From Patescibacteria group bacterium (GTDB lineage: Bacteria; Patescibacteriota; Microgenomatia; UBA12405), in the NCBI GenBank assembly GCA_013387215.1, contig WARW01000022.1, positions 238,417-302,416 of the forward strand: a stretch of 64,000 bases of DNA, given 5' to 3'. Both the position numbers and the translations under genes were made by a program. Each line of letters begins with the position of its first letter. Positions within the stretch are counted from its first letter, which is position 1. Of the stretch, positions 10,361-26,518 are shown one piece after another. The notes beneath the pieces were generated by a model. That model ran no database searches. It was not told the DNA's origin and worked only from the letters and a program-made list of their open reading frames with translations.

Positions 10361-11527
10361 ATGAATGATCTGATAAAATTGGCAATGCAAAAAACCGGTA
10401 GCGTGTTTATTAAAACCTTTGGCTGTATTCAAAATACGGCAGATTCAGAAAGAATCAAAGCTTTCTATTGGGACATCGGATACAAAGAAGTTGATGATTG
10501 GAAAAAGGCCGATTTAGTGGTCATAAATACTTGTATTGTTAGGGAATCGGCTGAAAACAGAGCTTATGGGCTTATTAATGAAATTGATAAGATCAACCGA
10601 AAATCTTCAAAAAAAATCGAAATTATTGTGACCGGGTGTTTGGTCGGCAAGGCTAATTTAGATAAAACCGGTAAAAAGATAAATAAATTGAATCGTGATT
10701 TTCCAGAAGTATCGGAATTTTTACCTATAGAAAAAATTTCTTTCCAAATTAAACCAATTCGAGATTTTAAAAATATTGCCCTGATTCCAATTAGCAGCGG
10801 CTGCAGCAATTTTTGCTCATACTGTATTGTCCCCTATGCCCGCGGACCAGAAATATCAAGAAAATTTGAAGATATTTTGACTGAAGTAGACGAAGCAATT
10901 AAAAATGGTTTTAAGAGTGTTGTATTAATTGGCCAAAACGTTAATTCGTATGGTTCTGATTTAGTCAAAGAAAATGAATATATTCTTTTAGACGGCAAAA
11001 AGATTTTACCAGTGATGGTGAAAAGCATGGGAAAGGCAAGAATACCAACACTTTTCCCATATCTTTTGGAAGAAATTGCAAAGAAAAATTTAGAAAAAAT
11101 AAGTTTTGTCAGCAGTAATCCTTGGGATTTTTCCGATGAACTTATTGAAGTAATCGCTAAGTATCCAAATATTGATAAATTACTGCATTTGCCGATTCAA
11201 TCGGGAGATGATGAAATCCTAAAAAGGATGAACCGAGGTTATACAACTGATGAATATTTAAAATTAGTCGAAAAAATCCGAGGTAAAGTAAAAGATGTTC
11301 AATTCAGCACCGATATTATTATCGGTTTTCCAGGCGAAGATGAAGCGTCATTTAACAGAACTGTGGAAGTATGCAAAAAGGCAAAATTCCAAATCGGATA
11401 TTTAAATAAATATTCCCCAAGAAAAGGAACTCTTTCCGCACAAATATACGAAAATGATGTGCCTCAAAGTGAAAAGAAAAGAAGATGGACTGTGTTAAAC
11501 GATTTAATAAATAAGAAAATTAATTAG
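10361..11527 (+). CDS. miaB: MiaB-family radical SAM methylthiotransferase (no TRAM domain)
   Basis: TFGCIQN, INTCIVRESAE, CSNFCSYC, DIIIGFPGE. Confidence 0.85.
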   Translation: MNDLIKLAMQKTGSVFIKTFGCIQNTADSERIKAFYWDIGYKEVDDWKKADLVVINTCIVRESAENRAYGLINEIDKINRKSSKKIEIIVTGCLVGKANLDKTGKKINKLNRDFPEVSEFLPIEKISFQIKPIRDFKNIALIPISSGCSNFCSYCIVPYARGPEISRKFEDILTEVDEAIKNGFKSVVLIGQNVNSYGSDLVKENEYILLDGKKILPVMVKSMGKARIPTLFPYLLEEIAKKNLEKISFVSSNPWDFSDELIEVIAKYPNIDKLLHLPIQSGDDEILKRMNRGYTTDEYLKLVEKIRGKVKDVQFSTDIIIGFPGEDEASFNRTVEVCKKAKFQIGYLNKYSPRKGTLSAQIYENDVPQSEKKRRWTVLNDLINKKIN

Positions 11528-11533
11528 AGTCTT

Positions 11534-11978
11534 ATAGCGGAAAAGTGGCGGGTCCCCCAGAGGGGGGTAATTAATTTATTAAAACAGCACGCAGGTCTAG
11601 AAGTTACAATAGAATGTTACTCCTAAGGTTTATGATCCTTAGTTTCGCGTCAGATGGGTACTCAAGGTTGACACTGTGGTCGCAAAGACTATTCACCGAT
11701 AAGGATACACACTGGTTGACTCTATATTTGTCTTGCATATCGACAATAGGGTCAAGACAGAGACTTTCCGTTCCCACAGACCCGTTGTACACACTCAGTC
11801 CTATTTTCCAACCTCTACTGGACCAATAATTGAATACCCTGCATTCTATTGTTTCCCCCTCGTCATTCTTGTACACCACGGTTGCATCTTTGCCCCCTTC
11901 GATATTAGTGTTCATCAAGTCCATGAGGCTCTCCTTTGCTTGCAACCTGCGTGCTGTTTTTTCCGTATTTTCCGCTAT
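11534..11978. repeat. Nested inverted repeats enclosing ORF (unit A)
   Basis: ATAGCGGAAAA 11534-11544 pairs with 11968-11978. AAAACAGCACGCAGGT 11581-11596 pairs with 11945-11960. Both are perfect. Confidence 0.9.
11604..11924 (-). CDS. Hypothetical protein (unit A cargo)
   Basis: ORF with AAAGGAGAG SD upstream of ATG 11924. Confidence 0.6.
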   Translation of the reverse strand: MDLMNTNIEGGKDATVVYKNDEGETIECRVFNYWSSRGWKIGLSVYNGSVGTESLCLDPIVDMQDKYRVNQCVSLSVNSLCDHSVNLEYPSDAKLRIINLRSNILL

Positions 11979-11989
11979 TTAAAAGAACT
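11979..11989 (-). promoter_or_regulatory. boxA-like motif AGTTCTTTTAA
   Basis: Directly precedes the 5' arm. TATAAT lies further upstream near 12027-12032. Confidence 0.6.
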
Positions 11990-12118
11990 GTTTGCATATT
12001 CTAGGAATTAAAGGGCAGCTAAAGCCATTATAGAATAATGCAACTATCATTTTATGAATAATTTTTATGATGTATATTACAAACATGTAAGAATACGGTA
12101 AGATAGGGATTTAGTATC

Positions 12119-12806
12119 AACATAGCGAAAAGAGGGTCCCCAGAAGGGGTGTAATTTAACCTTAAGCACGGCACGCAGACAAAAAATCAGTTAAGTCTTT
12201 CAACCAGACAACTTCCTTCCTGAGGATAAGTAAACAAAACAGTCTTATCCTCCATGGATAAGGTGATAACATAGAAATCCACCTTGAAGTCGGATGACGG
12301 GTTGACAACTTTTTTTTGGGTCACAGTTGATTCATCAACAGCATCATAAGAGATAAGCCAGTCGTTTCCAACTGAAGTCTCAGGGAAATTGGCCAGGCCA
12401 ATCATATACTTTCCATTTTTGTCTGATTCGACTTTAGCTTTATAGCCGGGAGGCACTTTGCAAGTACCATTGGTTACAGGGGCTGGCTTAGTGACGATTC
12501 TAGTTGCTTGGATGTAATGCTGCTGAGTTGGAACCGAGGTTGGATTGGATTCATAAACCATGGCTGAAGCGGTGCGGGCTGTTTTAGGGCTTGGGTTCAT
12601 GAGCAGTAAAAATGCTGCAACAACTGCCGTGATAAATACGAAGATGGGAACCAGAAACTTAGCTTTCATTAGTCCAGAATCCTTTCTATTTATGGGTTAG
12701 ATTACTTGAATAGTCTGCGTGCCGTGCCGGAAGAGAAAACAAAAGATAAGGATTTATCCTCTATTTTCTCTTTCGGAAGGCCGCAAACTGGTCTTTTCGC
12801 TATGTT
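12119..12806. repeat. Nested inverted repeats enclosing ORF (unit B)
   Basis: AACATAGCGAAAAGA 12119-12133 pairs with 12792-12806. GCACGGCACGCAGAC 12166-12180 pairs with 12713-12727. Both are perfect 15 bp. Confidence 0.9.
12187..12669 (-). CDS. Hypothetical secreted/membrane-anchored protein (unit B cargo)
   Basis: N-terminal hydrophobic helix, AGAAAGGA SD. Confidence 0.7.
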   Translation of the reverse strand: MKAKFLVPIFVFITAVVAAFLLLMNPSPKTARTASAMVYESNPTSVPTQQHYIQATRIVTKPAPVTNGTCKVPPGYKAKVESDKNGKYMIGLANFPETSVGNDWLISYDAVDESTVTQKKVVNPSSDFKVDFYVITLSMEDKTVLFTYPQEGSCLVERLN

Positions 12807-12813
12807 AAAGAAC
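12804..12813 (-). promoter_or_regulatory. boxA-like motif GTTCTTTAAC preceded by hairpin
   Basis: Matches rrn boxA. Upstream hairpin ATTTAGG-ATTTTATGC-CCTAAAT. Confidence 0.65.
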
Positions 12814-13124
12814 GGATAATAAGCATGATTTAGGGCATAAAATCCTAAATTGGCTTATATGATATATTGTAACATATATTACAGGATAGTCAATATATAA
12901 ACAGTTGGTTTAAATTCAAAATAATAGCGGAAAGAATGGACTATTTTAGTATATTTGCTGGCGAACGGAAGTCACATTTTTCCGCCATTTATATTGTTTT
13001 TAGCCTTAAATCCATTTGGTGGCCGCTTGTGACCAGAATGAAGAGGTATCAAACAATTCAGTCTAGAAAGAAAAATATAGGGTTAGATTAAGATTGAGCA
13101 ATAATTCAGTAAGATTAAGTTATC

Positions 13125-14006
13125 TTAGATACTTAAAGAAGATGCAAATGAAAGGCTTGTGTGATCGTTAGGTTTTAGTTGCCTAATAAATATTTTCTCT
13201 GATTTTAAGTTTTTCTTTACTGTTGAATTAGTTACTGTTCCGAATTTTATATGATAATTAATTTTATTGATTTCACAAAATTTGGAAACTATTTCAGCAC
13301 ATTCATTATAAAAATTCTTGTAATCCCTATACTCCGCGACAGCTGAGTTATAATTTAACCTTCCAAAAACAATTTTATCTACAAAGGAAACTTTTTCTAA
13401 TATTTCTAATAAATTTTGTTTAACTAAATTTGGTGTTGGATATGGTTCCATACTTACCCAAGTCTTTAATCCTGACTCATGAAGTCTTTTTAAAGTTTTT
13501 ATTCTTTTTAGAAATGGTGATGCTTTCGGTTCAAATATGGATCTAAATTTTTCATTCAAAGAAACTATTGTGATTCCGTATTCATTTTTATTACTATATT
13601 TTTTTGTATCTATTAAATCTTTTGGATAAACACCTTTTGTTAAAACAGTACATCGGATTTTATCTTTGTTCAGTCTTGCAATTACTTTTAACGTCATTTC
13701 TTCAACCTCTGGCTGTTCATACATAAACGGATCAGTACTAAAACAAAGGTGTACAAATTTAATCTTATCTTTAAGTTTTGGTATTTCTTTATCTAATAAC
13801 TCAATTGCATTTGCAACAATTTTTGGTTTAATCCAATCTTGATAATTTTTAATTACACCACATCTCTTCTTCATCATCATTGCATAGCAAGGATACATAC
13901 ACCCATGAGAACATCCTTCAACATGATTCAAGCAATAATCTGCATATTCGACTCCACTTTTATAAAGTAAAGATTTTCTGTAAATCTTCTGCAATTTCTG
14001 TTTCAC
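13125..14006 (-). CDS. Radical SAM protein, SplB/DUF5131-like
   Basis: GCSHGCMYPCYA three-Cys motif, FSTDPF, WVSMEP. Confidence 0.8.
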   Translation of the reverse strand: MKQKLQKIYRKSLLYKSGVEYADYCLNHVEGCSHGCMYPCYAMMMKKRCGVIKNYQDWIKPKIVANAIELLDKEIPKLKDKIKFVHLCFSTDPFMYEQPEVEEMTLKVIARLNKDKIRCTVLTKGVYPKDLIDTKKYSNKNEYGITIVSLNEKFRSIFEPKASPFLKRIKTLKRLHESGLKTWVSMEPYPTPNLVKQNLLEILEKVSFVDKIVFGRLNYNSAVAEYRDYKNFYNECAEIVSKFCEINKINYHIKFGTVTNSTVKKNLKSEKIFIRQLKPNDHTSLSFASSLSI

Positions 14007-14085
14007 TAGATTAGTTTAGACAATTTTAATTAAAAGGTCAAAGGTGTAATATATAACTCATTAAATAAGTTATTATTATTACGAC

Positions 14086-15222
14086 ATGACTATAAAGAAA
14101 CCTAAAGATTGGCCTAATGTTTCATATAAAACTTGGAGATATGAAAAACAGACAAAAATGAAACACCAAGTTCTAGATAATTATTTTCCGCAATGGTTAC
14201 AAATTCTTAATAAATATAACAAAAAATTAAATTATATTGATGGTTTTGGAGGATTAGGAGCCTATCACACAAAAAATGATATTGAAAATAATGCCTACAA
14301 CTCAAAATCATTTGGTTCTCCGATTTTAGCAATAAAGACTATTAATAGGCTTATAAGTGAAAATAAAGTTACAAAAGTGAATGTTTTAATTATAGATAAG
14401 GATAAAAATAATATTGCCAACATTCAAAAGATTTTATTCGAGGAAAATATTTCTCCTTTAAATTATGTAAATTTTATTAATGGAGATTTTGATGTAAAAA
14501 TTAATGAGTTTTTAGATAAACTGGACAATATTGCTCCCACCTTCTTTCTTATTGATCCATTTGGTTATTCTCAAATTAAGATTAGTACGATTAAAAGAAT
14601 CATGGAGTTGGAAAAATCGGAGATCTTTTTAAATTTTATGTACAATGCAATACAAAGATGGATTAAAAAACCTGCATTAGAGGCAAGATTTAATGAACTA
14701 TTTGGTTGTGAAGATTGGAAACAATATGCAGATGAACCAACAAAAGCTAAAGAAGAAAAACTTGTAGCTTTGTTTAAAAAGGAATGTGAAACATTCGCTG
14801 AATATGTTACTCCATTTAGGTTGAGAAACCCAAAAAGCGATAGGCCTTATTATTATCTTTTTCATTTATGCAATGATGATACTGGTTGTGTAAAAATGCG
14901 AGCTAGTTTTGCTCGTTTTAACAAAGGGTTTACAGATTATTGCGGATCCGACCAACAAATGTGTTTATTTGATAAAAACTCAACAAAAAAACAAGTCTGT
15001 GTAGAAAAAATTATTAAATATTTTTCCGGACAAAATATAAGTTATAAAGAATTTCGAAAACAAATGTTAAAGCTGTCTGATTATCATACAGAAAGGGATA
15101 TTATTAGGACTTTACAACATTTAGAAAAAAGAAAATCTATTACAATAGCTCCTTCAGATGGAAGAAAAAGAAAAACTGGAATATTAAAAACTGATATTAT
15201 TAAAATTCCACATTTATCTTAA
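14086..15222 (+). CDS. tcmP: Three-Cys-motif partner protein (TcmP family, MTase-like fold plus wHTH)
   Basis: T..KH..L..Y...W, YIDGFGG.G, GSP, FFLIDPFG, SEIFLNFM. Confidence 0.8.
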   Translation: MTIKKPKDWPNVSYKTWRYEKQTKMKHQVLDNYFPQWLQILNKYNKKLNYIDGFGGLGAYHTKNDIENNAYNSKSFGSPILAIKTINRLISENKVTKVNVLIIDKDKNNIANIQKILFEENISPLNYVNFINGDFDVKINEFLDKLDNIAPTFFLIDPFGYSQIKISTIKRIMELEKSEIFLNFMYNAIQRWIKKPALEARFNELFGCEDWKQYADEPTKAKEEKLVALFKKECETFAEYVTPFRLRNPKSDRPYYYLFHLCNDDTGCVKMRASFARFNKGFTDYCGSDQQMCLFDKNSTKKQVCVEKIIKYFSGQNISYKEFRKQMLKLSDYHTERDIIRTLQHLEKRKSITIAPSDGRKRKTGILKTDIIKIPHLS

Positions 15223-23775: not shown

Positions 23776-24387
23776 CTATTGATTGCTTTTAATAATTTTT
23801 TCGTCGACAGTGATTTTTCCGGTGGGAGATTTTGATTCAATTGTTATTTTATTATCGCCATTAGATAGGTTTATTTTCTTCTCAAAGTTGCCACTAGGAT
23901 CAACTAAAATTAAATCGTTATTTACTTTAATTGTTGCCTCAGGATCGGTAACCCCGGTTAAATCCAAAATACTTCCAAGAGTAATAGTATTGCTCGGCCA
24001 ATTCACTTTTAATTTGGGAGGACGATTGAATTTTATATATTCTGAAACTAAATAAAATGAGAATAATAAAATGGTGATAAAAATAGTGAGAATAAAGGTA
24101 AATTTGGGAGTGAAGGCAAAGAACTTTTCTTGACGGGATTTTGATTTTCTTTTGGTTTCAAAATCGCGGCGAAAAAGCCTCAGAGTTTCCTGGCCATTTA
24201 GACCTAAATAATCTGCATAATCTTTAATCATCAAAGAACAATATGGTTCCTGAGGAAAATTTAGTGTGTCTTCATTTTCCAAAGCTTCTAGATACTTAAT
24301 AGGTATTTTTAATTTCTTAGAAATATCTGCAAGCTCATATTCTTTGTCGAGACGAGTATTTTTAAGTAGTGATGAGGCTCGAAACAT
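23776..24387 (-). CDS. RodZ-like HTH membrane protein
   Basis: HTH (YLEALE...YADYLGL), TM, Ig-like C-terminus; follows ftsK. Confidence 0.75.
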   Translation of the reverse strand: MFRASSLLKNTRLDKEYELADISKKLKIPIKYLEALENEDTLNFPQEPYCSLMIKDYADYLGLNGQETLRLFRRDFETKRKSKSRQEKFFAFTPKFTFILTIFITILLFSFYLVSEYIKFNRPPKLKVNWPSNTITLGSILDLTGVTDPEATIKVNNDLILVDPSGNFEKKINLSNGDNKITIESKSPTGKITVDEKIIKSNQ

Positions 24388-24394
24388 ATTTTGA

Positions 24395-26518
24395 TTATTC
24401 AGCAGTATCGTCTGAAGTGTTGTGAGCAATTAAAATTTCCCGTGGTTTAGCACCATTGGCTGGGCCAACAATACCCGCTTGTTCAAGCTGGTCTAATACA
24501 CGAGCAGCGCGGGCGTAACCTAATTTAAGACGACGCTGCATTAAGGAAGCAGAAGCTTTACCGGTTTCTTGAACCAGCTTAACCGCATCTTCAAACATCG
24601 CATCCCGATCTTCAACATTACCACTCATAGCAGCATTGCCTTTGCCATTGTGGGCAACTGGCTGACTGATAACTTGATCGTCATACTCGGTGACTTTTTG
24701 AGTTTTTAGATAGTCAATTAAGGCAGTTAATTCTTTATCAGAAACAAAACAGCCTTGAATTCTGACTGGCTTGGCTAAATCCGGTGGAATATAAAGCATG
24801 TCTCCCCTTCCGAGAAGCTTTTCAGCTCCTGGAGAATCCAAAATAACCCGAGAATCAGTAACAGAGGCTACAGCAAAAGAAAGACGAGTTGGGATGTTGG
24901 CTTTGATTAAACCAGTAATGACGTTTACAGAAGGTCTTTGAGTGGCCAAAATTAAATGGATACCGACAGCACGAGCCATTTGAGCTAAACGACAGATATT
25001 GTCTTCAACTTCAGTTGGCGAAAATAACATGATTTCGGCAAGCTCGTCGATAAAAATTAAAATGTAGGGCAAAGATTGAAAACCTGCCAAATTGTTGTAG
25101 GCTTCAATATTTTTGGCACCAACTTCAGTAAAGGTTTTATAGCGTCGTTCCATCTCCCCTACTGCCCATTTTAAGGCAGAAATAACTTTTTCAGGTTCAA
25201 CGATAACTGGAGTTAAAAGATGAGGAATACCGTTATATGGAGTTAATTCGACCCGTTTTGGATCGACCATAATCATTCTGACCTCATCTGGAGAAGCCCG
25301 GAATAAAATGTTGGCAATCCAAGAGTTCACACAAACAGATTTACCTGAACCTGTTTGACCGGCAATAAGCACGTGAGGCATTTTAGCAATATCGCCGACT
25401 TTAGGATTACCAGCCACATCCAAACCAAGCGGAACACAAATCTTATTCTTAGCACTCTTCATGGCTTCAGATTCAAGGATTCGGCGAATAGGCACAACTT
25501 CCAATGAACGATTAGGAACTTCAATACCTACAAGAGAACGGCCTGGAATTGGAGCTTCCACACGGATCATACCGCCTGGAGCAGCTAAAGCCATAGCCAT
25601 ATCGTTGCTTAAGCTTAAAATTTTAGCTAATTTAGTGCCTAGAGCTACTTCAAGAGCATATTGAGTGACTGATGGACTATTATTGACTTCAGTGACACGA
25701 GCAGTAATACCGAAGGAATCAAGAGTTTGTTCAATAATTGAGGCATTTTTGCGGACATCACCTCGGTCAGCCTTGGCTCCGGGAGTGCCGTCAAAAATTG
25801 AAATGGATGGATATTCCCACATTTGATTTCCAGAAGAACTGAGAGCCTTGACTGGTGCAGCTGGATTATTGGAAAGCGGATTATCTTTAAAAATAGGGGC
25901 AATATTGACCACGGCCGGATCTTCTTTGAACTTTTCTTTAGCAGATTCCTTTGAAGAACTAATTTCTGAGTGGTAAATAGCTTCTTTAGAACCTTTCTTG
26001 GTTTTTGCCTTGTTAACACTACCGATAGTGTATTTTTTAAGCATTACAAAGATAGTAGTCAAGAATTTGACCACTTGAGCAACCGAGGTGTCGAAAAGAA
26101 TAACAAAGCCGACAATCATGGCAAAAAAGAAGATAAAAAAGCTTGGAAGTTTTCCAAAAAGAACCAATAGTTGATTCCAAAAGAAAACACCAGCAACACC
26201 CTGCTCAAACAAACTGATCAAAGATACAAACATGATGGTAAAACCCAAAAATACGTTTAATTCTTTTAAAGGGGATTTAATTTTAGCGAACAAAAAAGAA
26301 ATTAAGAGCAATAAAAAAGGGATAAAAACAGAACCGAAACCAAAATATTCGGTTAGGAATTTATTGTATCCCGATGGAATCGGACCAGTCTGTAAAAATG
26401 AAAATACAGAAAGGATCGATAAAATTAAAAAGAAAATGAAGAAGACTGTTTGGACAGTTTCAGGTTTTAGAGTTAAGCGAGGGAATGCCCCCTTTTTTTT
26501 TCGACCACGTTTAGCCAT
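24395..26518 (-). CDS. ftsK: DNA translocase FtsK/SpoIIIE
   Basis: AGQTGSGKS, ATQRPS, LLGRGDML, gamma domain. Confidence 0.96.
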   Translation of the reverse strand: MAKRGRKKKGAFPRLTLKPETVQTVFFIFFLILSILSVFSFLQTGPIPSGYNKFLTEYFGFGSVFIPFLLLLISFLFAKIKSPLKELNVFLGFTIMFVSLISLFEQGVAGVFFWNQLLVLFGKLPSFFIFFFAMIVGFVILFDTSVAQVVKFLTTIFVMLKKYTIGSVNKAKTKKGSKEAIYHSEISSSKESAKEKFKEDPAVVNIAPIFKDNPLSNNPAAPVKALSSSGNQMWEYPSISIFDGTPGAKADRGDVRKNASIIEQTLDSFGITARVTEVNNSPSVTQYALEVALGTKLAKILSLSNDMAMALAAPGGMIRVEAPIPGRSLVGIEVPNRSLEVVPIRRILESEAMKSAKNKICVPLGLDVAGNPKVGDIAKMPHVLIAGQTGSGKSVCVNSWIANILFRASPDEVRMIMVDPKRVELTPYNGIPHLLTPVIVEPEKVISALKWAVGEMERRYKTFTEVGAKNIEAYNNLAGFQSLPYILIFIDELAEIMLFSPTEVEDNICRLAQMARAVGIHLILATQRPSVNVITGLIKANIPTRLSFAVASVTDSRVILDSPGAEKLLGRGDMLYIPPDLAKPVRIQGCFVSDKELTALIDYLKTQKVTEYDDQVISQPVAHNGKGNAAMSGNVEDRDAMFEDAVKLVQETGKASASLMQRRLKLGYARAARVLDQLEQAGIVGPANGAKPREILIAHNTSDDTAE

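Follow-up and report, generated by a model that had tools for sequence, protein, structure and literature searches.

In bacteria, rRNA is folded and processed by way of a loop in which Nus factors act at boxA and the leader and trailer of the transcript form a helix. The E. coli proposal is that the boxA-bound Nus complex keeps the leader close to the exit channel, that the rRNA meanwhile loops out and that the emerging trailer then pairs (PMC10250234), and the Nus complex was also reported to boost RNase III processing in this organism (10.64898/2026.03.17.712431). Outside rRNA operons, boxA has been described in the 5' untranslated regions (UTRs) of gammaproteobacterial mRNAs, including those of suhB and a ParE-like toxin, and in CRISPR leaders (PMC5725501; PMC13753749), and pairing between the two UTRs of one mRNA is known from B. 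subtilis hbs (PMC5737220). Here we describe two adjacent units, A and B, in a 64,000-nt window (the whole stretch of DNA analyzed; positions 238,417 to 302,416 of contig WARW01000022.1, assembly GCA_013387215.1) of a Patescibacteria group bacterium, each of which holds a short open reading frame (ORF) within a leader-trailer clamp that is preceded by a boxA-like motif. From the analyses below we consider that they are probably small transcription units in which Nus-assisted pairing of the ends packages the mRNA in the way of a pre-rRNA, and their sequences suggest that some mRNAs in this bacterium may be made and sealed in the manner of rRNA.

A first-pass annotation made from the sequence alone had described a two-segment RNA clamp in each unit, and four perfect long-range helices, of 11 and 16 bp in unit A and 15 and 15 bp in unit B, were confirmed at these positions. 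With all arms assigned to the minus strand, the outer helix of unit A joins a leader arm at 11968-11978 to a trailer arm at 11534-11544 (11 bp) and the inner helix joins 11945-11960 to 11581-11596 (16 bp), the inner trailer arm lying 7 nt past the stop codon. In unit B the outer helix joins 12792-12806 to 12119-12133 and the inner helix joins 12713-12727 to 12166-12180, with 15 bp in each and the inner trailer arm 6 nt past the stop codon. The annotation had also reported that differences between the two units are mirrored in the partner arms, and an in-register alignment revealed that 7 of 26 pairs differ (2 of 11 outer, 5 of 15 inner) and that all seven are two-sided Watson-Crick swaps; the two outer differences can alternatively be read as a single 1-nt slip copied on both arms. 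Two frames are too few for a statistic of phylogenetic covariation. When 11500-13000 was shuffled 500 times with its dinucleotide content approximately kept, the longest perfect repeat with inverted arms at least 150 nt apart measured 10.0 nt on average, 15 nt once and 16 nt never, while the real region contains repeats of 16, 15 and 15 nt. Folding of the whole units gave z = -3.3 for A and z = -6.4 for B. The extra long hairpin previously noticed in the unit B leader (about 12727-12776, minus strand) was observed as well, and closes fully on this strand by means of G-U pairs.

The order of parts on the minus strand is the same in each unit, namely a promoter-like site, a hairpin, a boxA-like motif, the leader arms, a Shine-Dalgarno (SD) sequence, the ORF and the partner arms. 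The boxA-like motifs and the 5' hairpins, together with a cargo-less third copy at 12924-12988, are parts that the first-pass annotation did not contain. The motif of unit B (GTTCTTTAACA, 12803-12813) is a perfect match to the gammaproteobacterial consensus GYTCTTTAANA and that of unit A (GTTCTTTTAAA, 11978-11988) has one mismatch to it (PMC5725501). The outer leader arm begins where the motif ends in unit A and overlaps the final 4 nt of the motif in unit B. The predicted 5' hairpins (11992-12043 in A, 12819-12858 in B) are boxB-like by their position. Sigma-70-like promoter candidates were located at 12049-12076 for unit A (weak, 9/12 match) and at 12866-12893 for unit B (10/12 with an extended -10, its end separated by 7 nt from the 5' hairpin), such matches being no more frequent than chance in the region (7 against an expected 5.3). 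The 9-mer TGTAATATA is common to the two promoter regions (12073-12081 and 12875-12883), and in unit B it lies within a 16-nt palindrome that could be an operator. ORF A is preceded by the SD sequence AAGGAG (11931-11936) and ORF B by the SD-like motif AAGGAT (12679-12684); the anti-SD is retained at the 3' end of the genome's 16S rRNA, and a 5-base SD, which is rare in this genome (8.1% of 1093 ATG genes), is present for both cargoes. The minus strand was assigned to all of these features because of the ORFs, the SDs, the boxA-like motifs and the promoter candidates.

The 16S leader of the same genome contains a hairpin, the motif GATCTTTAAAA, and then arms that pair with the trailer behind the 16S gene, which is the order of parts seen in units A and B, and its motif is close to the B. 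subtilis boxA consensus (PMC13753749). The nusB gene is directly upstream of the RNase III gene rnc (C19:6753-7453, plus strand, on contig C19 of this genome), rho and nusA are also encoded, and nusB and rho were present in all 5 congeners tested. The genes for RNase J and PNPase are both inside the window. With the boxB-boxA-boxC leader of rRNA operons, units A and B have in common the hairpin, the boxA and the long leader-trailer helix around looped-out cargo (PMC10250234; 10.64898/2026.03.17.712431), as well as extra leader hairpins. They differ from it in having an SD-led protein gene as cargo and helix segments of 11-16 bp, in that no conserved boxC was identified in either frame, and in a genome where SuhB was not found. 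Since the cargo is an mRNA, the units may work like an rrn leader but are not one. The boxA mRNAs of gammaproteobacteria resemble A and B in carrying boxA in a non-rRNA 5' UTR, but no leader-trailer helix is described in the available portions of those reports, and the effect at suhB is translational repression and premature termination (PMC5725501; PMC13753749).

The mechanism that we propose would begin with binding of NusB-S10 to boxA, as can be inferred from the E. coli rrn work, whereupon the polymerase would become Rho-resistant and retain the 5' end of the transcript while the ORF loops out. The trailer would pair with the retained leader on emergence, and the sealed ends would protect the message against RNase J and PNPase, receive RNase III trimming, or both. 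The expected outcome would be a stable and strongly translated message for a mostly exported or membrane-anchored accessory protein. Units A and B would have arisen from one duplicated frame in which the cargo was replaced or diverged past recognition, and selection on pairing would keep the arms matched.

The frame of A and B was searched for elsewhere. The trailer has only two copies in the 1.3-Mb genome. Its pattern was found in 0 of 60 relatives and, with 2 mismatches allowed, in 8 of 400 phylum genomes, which equals the control level and included no double clamp; the genome_contigs collection gave 1 match, from which the clamp was absent. Scans of viral sequences for the frame returned 0, 93, 85, 48 and 0 matches, with no double clamp among the distinct contexts examined. 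A covariance model of the two trailers recovered only its own two copies and nothing in 131 genomes of the order or 149 of the class (overlapping sets). BLASTN of 11500-13050 gave short matches in 25 of 400 class genomes, none of them a frame, none in phages and a single 34-nt chance match in plasmids, and a combined boxA and arm pattern was matched in 19 of 131 genomes, again at control level and never with a clamp. The RNA clamp with a multi-branch junction that the first-pass annotation had proposed is supported, while the exchangeable cargo that it proposed as the other possibility is as conjectural as before, the frame with other cargo having been found nowhere in our searches. Phage morons and T4-type promoter-stem-loop cassettes are also self-contained promoter-gene units with shared non-coding frames, unrelated cargo and variable loci; they are not known to have an end-to-end helix or boxA, and the phage and viral searches revealed no phage context for A or B. 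Another genome (G151) contains a short GC-rich intergenic repeat in 3 copies with a similar C-run/G-run hairpin and no clamp.

Because searches beyond this genome revealed no further member of the A/B sequence family, we scanned the genome for other genes with leader-trailer pairing. A boxA-like motif was present in 33 of 1080 gene leaders compared with 7 in the reversed and 11 in the complemented control, and a 5-base SD accompanied it in 19 of these 33 leaders, compared with 68 of the other 1047 (P = 8e-14). Of 51 units with boxA and SD, each was tested against all 51 trailers, and in 12 of them, A and B both included, the 25 nt past boxA found their best partner in the trailer of the same unit, where about 1 such case is expected. 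The gene starts used in these counts and in the family counts below came from a crude caller, and the kin and paralogs among the genes are non-independent. One end-pairing gene, C11:16077-16742 (plus strand), belongs to a family unrelated to A and B which is represented in 17 of 132 genomes of the order and whose members are membrane-anchored or secreted; the query had no NCBIfam family over the cut-off, and its paralogs in this genome are C11:17523-18542, C11:22992-23813, C15:180335-180802 and C15:181143-181529. The family set has 23 gene entries, of which 5 belong to this genome and 21 have their upstream sequence complete. In this set a boxA-matching motif stands immediately 5' of the pairing arm, the strict boxA pattern was matched in 15 of 21 leaders and in none of the reversed or complemented controls, and 12 of 19 arms paired best with their own trailer, the arm sequences being different. 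There are also other tandem pairs in this genome with related arms around dissimilar ORFs, C11:22992-23813 and C11:24062-24745 being one example. We infer from these sequence patterns that A and B are one sequence family in a wider class of such frames in the lineage.

Further boxA units of this kind were noted in the course of the scan. Two pairs, C1:169226-171298 with 176136-178175 and C12:23437-23784 with 24071-24481 (plus strand), have related covarying arms and different ORFs. C11:24062-24745 and the following 24996-25652 (plus strand) are in tandem, both behind boxA and SD, and encode the sole two of 1080 proteins with a YLP-box-like C-terminus; the product of the first passes NCBIfam NF053834. 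A similar internal YLP-box-like motif occurs in C1:196102-197247 (minus strand), which has an end-pairing frame, and a boxA unit in a congener (G008:C5:14244-17254) has a 15-nt arm complementary to the stop-codon region and a hammerhead core downstream.

It appears rather unlikely that the helices are plain 5'-3' UTR pairing for stability or translation, with a boxA-like motif that is there by coincidence or that Nus factors have ceased to use. The precedent for such pairing is hbs, where a 14-bp UTR interaction governs RNase Y cleavage and so affects nuclease access to a message that, like A and B, has a strong SD (PMC5737220); hbs is however one conserved gene, and the available portion of that report mentions no boxA, while A and B are a duplicated frame with orphan ORFs and two helix segments. 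The failure to find SuhB and the single mismatch in the unit A motif would both be in keeping with this explanation, but it would not account for an arm that starts right where the motif stops in A, in B, in the 16S leader and in most family members, nor for a co-occurrence of motif and SD that is far above chance.

Several observations weigh against packaging in the manner of pre-rRNA. SuhB (PF00459) was not found in this 98.6% complete genome, and stable assembly of the E. coli rrnTAC requires it (10.64898/2026.03.17.712431); a boxA close to the SD represses translation at E. coli suhB (PMC5725501). In 39 of the 51 boxA and SD units the own trailer was not the best partner. Genome-wide boxA counts were no higher than the reversed control in congeners and were 35 against 24 in this genome, and the figure of 20 of 21 family leaders with boxA at one mismatch has no matched control. 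The degenerate boxA pattern was written after these leaders had been viewed, so its counts lean toward a boxA interpretation. As the A/B frame has no homolog that we could find, its covariation rests on two copies. Whole-frame energies do not fix the strand, being -69.8 (minus) and -71.2 (plus) for A and -97.9 (minus) and -98.7 (plus) for B, and only a narrower B frame favours the minus strand. The model of the frame also offers no explanation for a conserved block in the trailer.

This block, which the first-pass annotation had correctly seen in both trailers, consists of AATTAC, a C-run hairpin and ACCC and is located on the minus strand at 11550-11572 in unit A and, as a homologous sequence, at 12134-12156 in unit B, its loop differing slightly between the two. 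Our guess is that the hairpin is terminator-like or pause-like. We consider it very unlikely that the junction of the two helices and the trailer is itself a functional RNA, either a new self-cleaving ribozyme or a protein-binding site, that replaces a hammerhead, an idea which is compatible with pre-rRNA-like packaging. Units A and B have identical unpaired AATTAC and ACCC segments but variable neighboring linkers, and the related cassettes often have a hammerhead core in the trailer which A and B do not. There are however two examples only, no Rfam match was obtained at either unit, and a similar ATTAC and C-run hairpin lies past the 16S trailer and has the look of a terminator there. Likenesses to hairpin, twister, pistol, hatchet and hepatitis delta virus-like ribozymes, judged by eye, were rejected as the full motif was lacking.

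Hammerhead cores were found downstream of 13 of the 23 genes of the C11:16077-16742 family, and one hammerhead in the 20 family loci scanned passed the Rfam cut-off. The genome has six clear cores, at C1:47614, C1:45052 and C11:11621 on the minus strand and at C11:16861, C15:180893 and C15:181618 on the plus strand, four of them downstream of boxA and SD genes; at A and B there was no hammerhead core and no Rfam ribozyme. The hammerheads in the related class would fit a non-autonomous, RNA-borne mobile cassette similar to a retron, a retrozyme or a circular RNA, in which the clamp and trailer hairpin would be recognized by a trans-acting reverse transcriptase or ligase, each unit being an integrated copy. 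Tandem homologous frames, orphan cargo that looks foreign by its G+C content at third codon positions (GC3), a location at an insertion hotspot and an 89% identical relative of ORF B within the same soil study would also fit. We regard this origin as quite improbable, as neither reverse transcriptase (PF00078) nor RtcB was found in the genome, A and B gave neither an Rfam match nor a hammerhead core, and the promoter-like sites are kept outside the clamp, where a copied processed RNA would lose them.

That the arms are ends of a DNA element, whether a miniature inverted-repeat transposable element (MITE), an insertion sequence (IS) or a foldback element, which captured or bracketed the ORFs is highly improbable and was largely refuted by our results. 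In MITEs and IS elements inverted sequences likewise bracket a segment, and the perfect inverted arms of A and B, the cargo-less third copy nearby and four tyrosine-recombinase matches elsewhere in the genome would be in line with such an origin. The MITE interpretation raised as an alternative by the first-pass annotation implied target duplications and a cognate transposase, and neither was found: there is no target-site duplication at A or B, the flanks differ at both units, and the 51 window proteins scanned include no transposase or integrase. No Y1 transposase was detected genome-wide, DDE families not having been searched on that scale; no integron integrase was found in the window, where attC core-site patterns were judged by eye only. 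Three low-depth DNA runs from one study contained no empty site, joint or excised form. The trailer is limited to its two copies, the arms differ between copies yet stay paired, and the asymmetric hairpin block is present on one side only. Resemblances by eye to T-boxes, IS608 ends, CRESS origins and RNA-phage termini were rejected for want of the full motif.

The third copy, unit C (12924-12988), is a solo copy of the outer helix of unit A without cargo, to which no strand was assigned; upstream of it there is a degenerate match to the A leader on the plus strand, in which the boxA pattern is unmatched. A 51-codon ORF (12936-13091, plus strand) starts within unit C and shares its first 7 nt with ORF A; a stretch of it is like the YLP-box ending of the C11:24062-24745 product, which may be chance.

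The first-pass annotation had also called the two ORFs dissimilar, and BLASTP gave no alignment between them at E <= 100. ORF A (11604-11924, minus strand) encodes 106 aa from its ATG, is an orphan and is predicted to be all-beta, while ORF B (12187-12669, minus strand) encodes 160 aa with an N-terminal hydrophobic helix, a Pro/Thr-rich linker and a predicted beta domain. Their GC3 values are 0.52 and 0.42, respectively, compared with a genome median of 0.28. Protein, genome, phage and viral searches identified no homolog of either ORF, apart from a 264-nt contig from a soil run (X3) that matches part of ORF B with about 89% identity; a metagenome match was rejected as a signal-peptide look-alike in an unrelated GC-rich gene. 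Of the 22 substitutions between ORF B and the X3 contig 16 are synonymous and 6 are replacements, with 24% synonymous expected, and of the 16 substitutions that lie away from a 3-nt loss that keeps the frame 14 are synonymous. Because of this excess, ORF B is, by the comparison with one low-depth contig, a real gene under purifying selection. The selection comparison was made for ORF B only, and ORF A is supported by its SD and a beta-rich model. Structure models of the two cargoes were of low confidence (pLDDT 61 and 47) and no clear match emerged from fold searches (best Z 7.0 and 4.6), the matches of ORF A at Z <= 7.0 being uninformative. Folding of the cargo mRNAs was ordinary relative to synonymous shuffles (z = -0.08 for A and -1.17 for B; host sample mean -0.85).

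The genome (1.3 Mb, about 34% GC, 23 contigs) carries units A and B between miaB and mltG, alongside a radical-SAM/TcmP-like pair. This pair (window 13125-15222) is AT-rich and in the island of units A and B, and a gene 61% identical to its radical-SAM gene was found in 1 of 250 other phylum genomes. In congeners miaB directly abuts mltG at 18 of 29 loci, the remaining 11 having other DNA or a contig edge, and 11 regions examined at this junction in relatives had unrelated inserts, none with an A/B-type clamp. This comparison marks the miaB-mltG junction as an insertion hotspot and A and B as accessory units. Inverted repeats were also seen in other parts of the genome: a sugar-transferase-like gene (C3:24047-25730, labelled by sequence reading) is bracketed by an interrupted inverted repeat of about 190 nt, with related repeat-like spacers at neighboring genes of the GC3-rich contig C3, and a perfect 24-nt inverted repeat at C8:9757-10014 surrounds 211 nt without an obvious ORF and folds as a long rod.

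At its boldest, the evidence could be taken to mean a dedicated class of mRNAs that are Nus-controlled, uncoupled from translation and end-sealed, and are then either kept in store or handed over to the host cell, which would translate them; we would call this a long shot. Such a role would account for strong SDs in a genome where SDs are scarce, the elevated GC3 (0.34 against 0.28, the former being the median of 16 clamped units chosen by a cut-off set after the scan), the excess of N-terminal hydrophobic segments (12 of those 16 against 350 of 1080), and the position of both YLP-box-like C-termini behind boxA. However, core genes such as those taken by their N-termini to be tufA, rpoC and nusA also have an SD, so such messages are readable by the ribosomes of the organism itself, and the GC3 would follow from a recent horizontal gain.

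Messages led by boxA and pairing between UTRs are each known separately, and what appears to be new in these sequences is their combination around orphan genes. No such combination was found in the literature searched, which mostly excluded subscription papers, nor was anything relevant on boxA in Patescibacteria; terms for this architecture are absent from the main text of a bioRxiv report (10.64898/2026.10.21.760802). Units A and B offer a clean natural experiment, with one frame present twice, seven compensated swaps and unrelated cargo, and they are short enough for in vitro synthesis and tests. The signature of boxA, SD and end pairing picks out accessory genes, plausibly for host contact. 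If our interpretation is correct, Patescibacteria would reuse the rRNA-type loop for the mRNAs of orphan, mostly exported proteins, which would be a mode of gene expression that we have not found in print, in a lineage thought to be poor in regulation.

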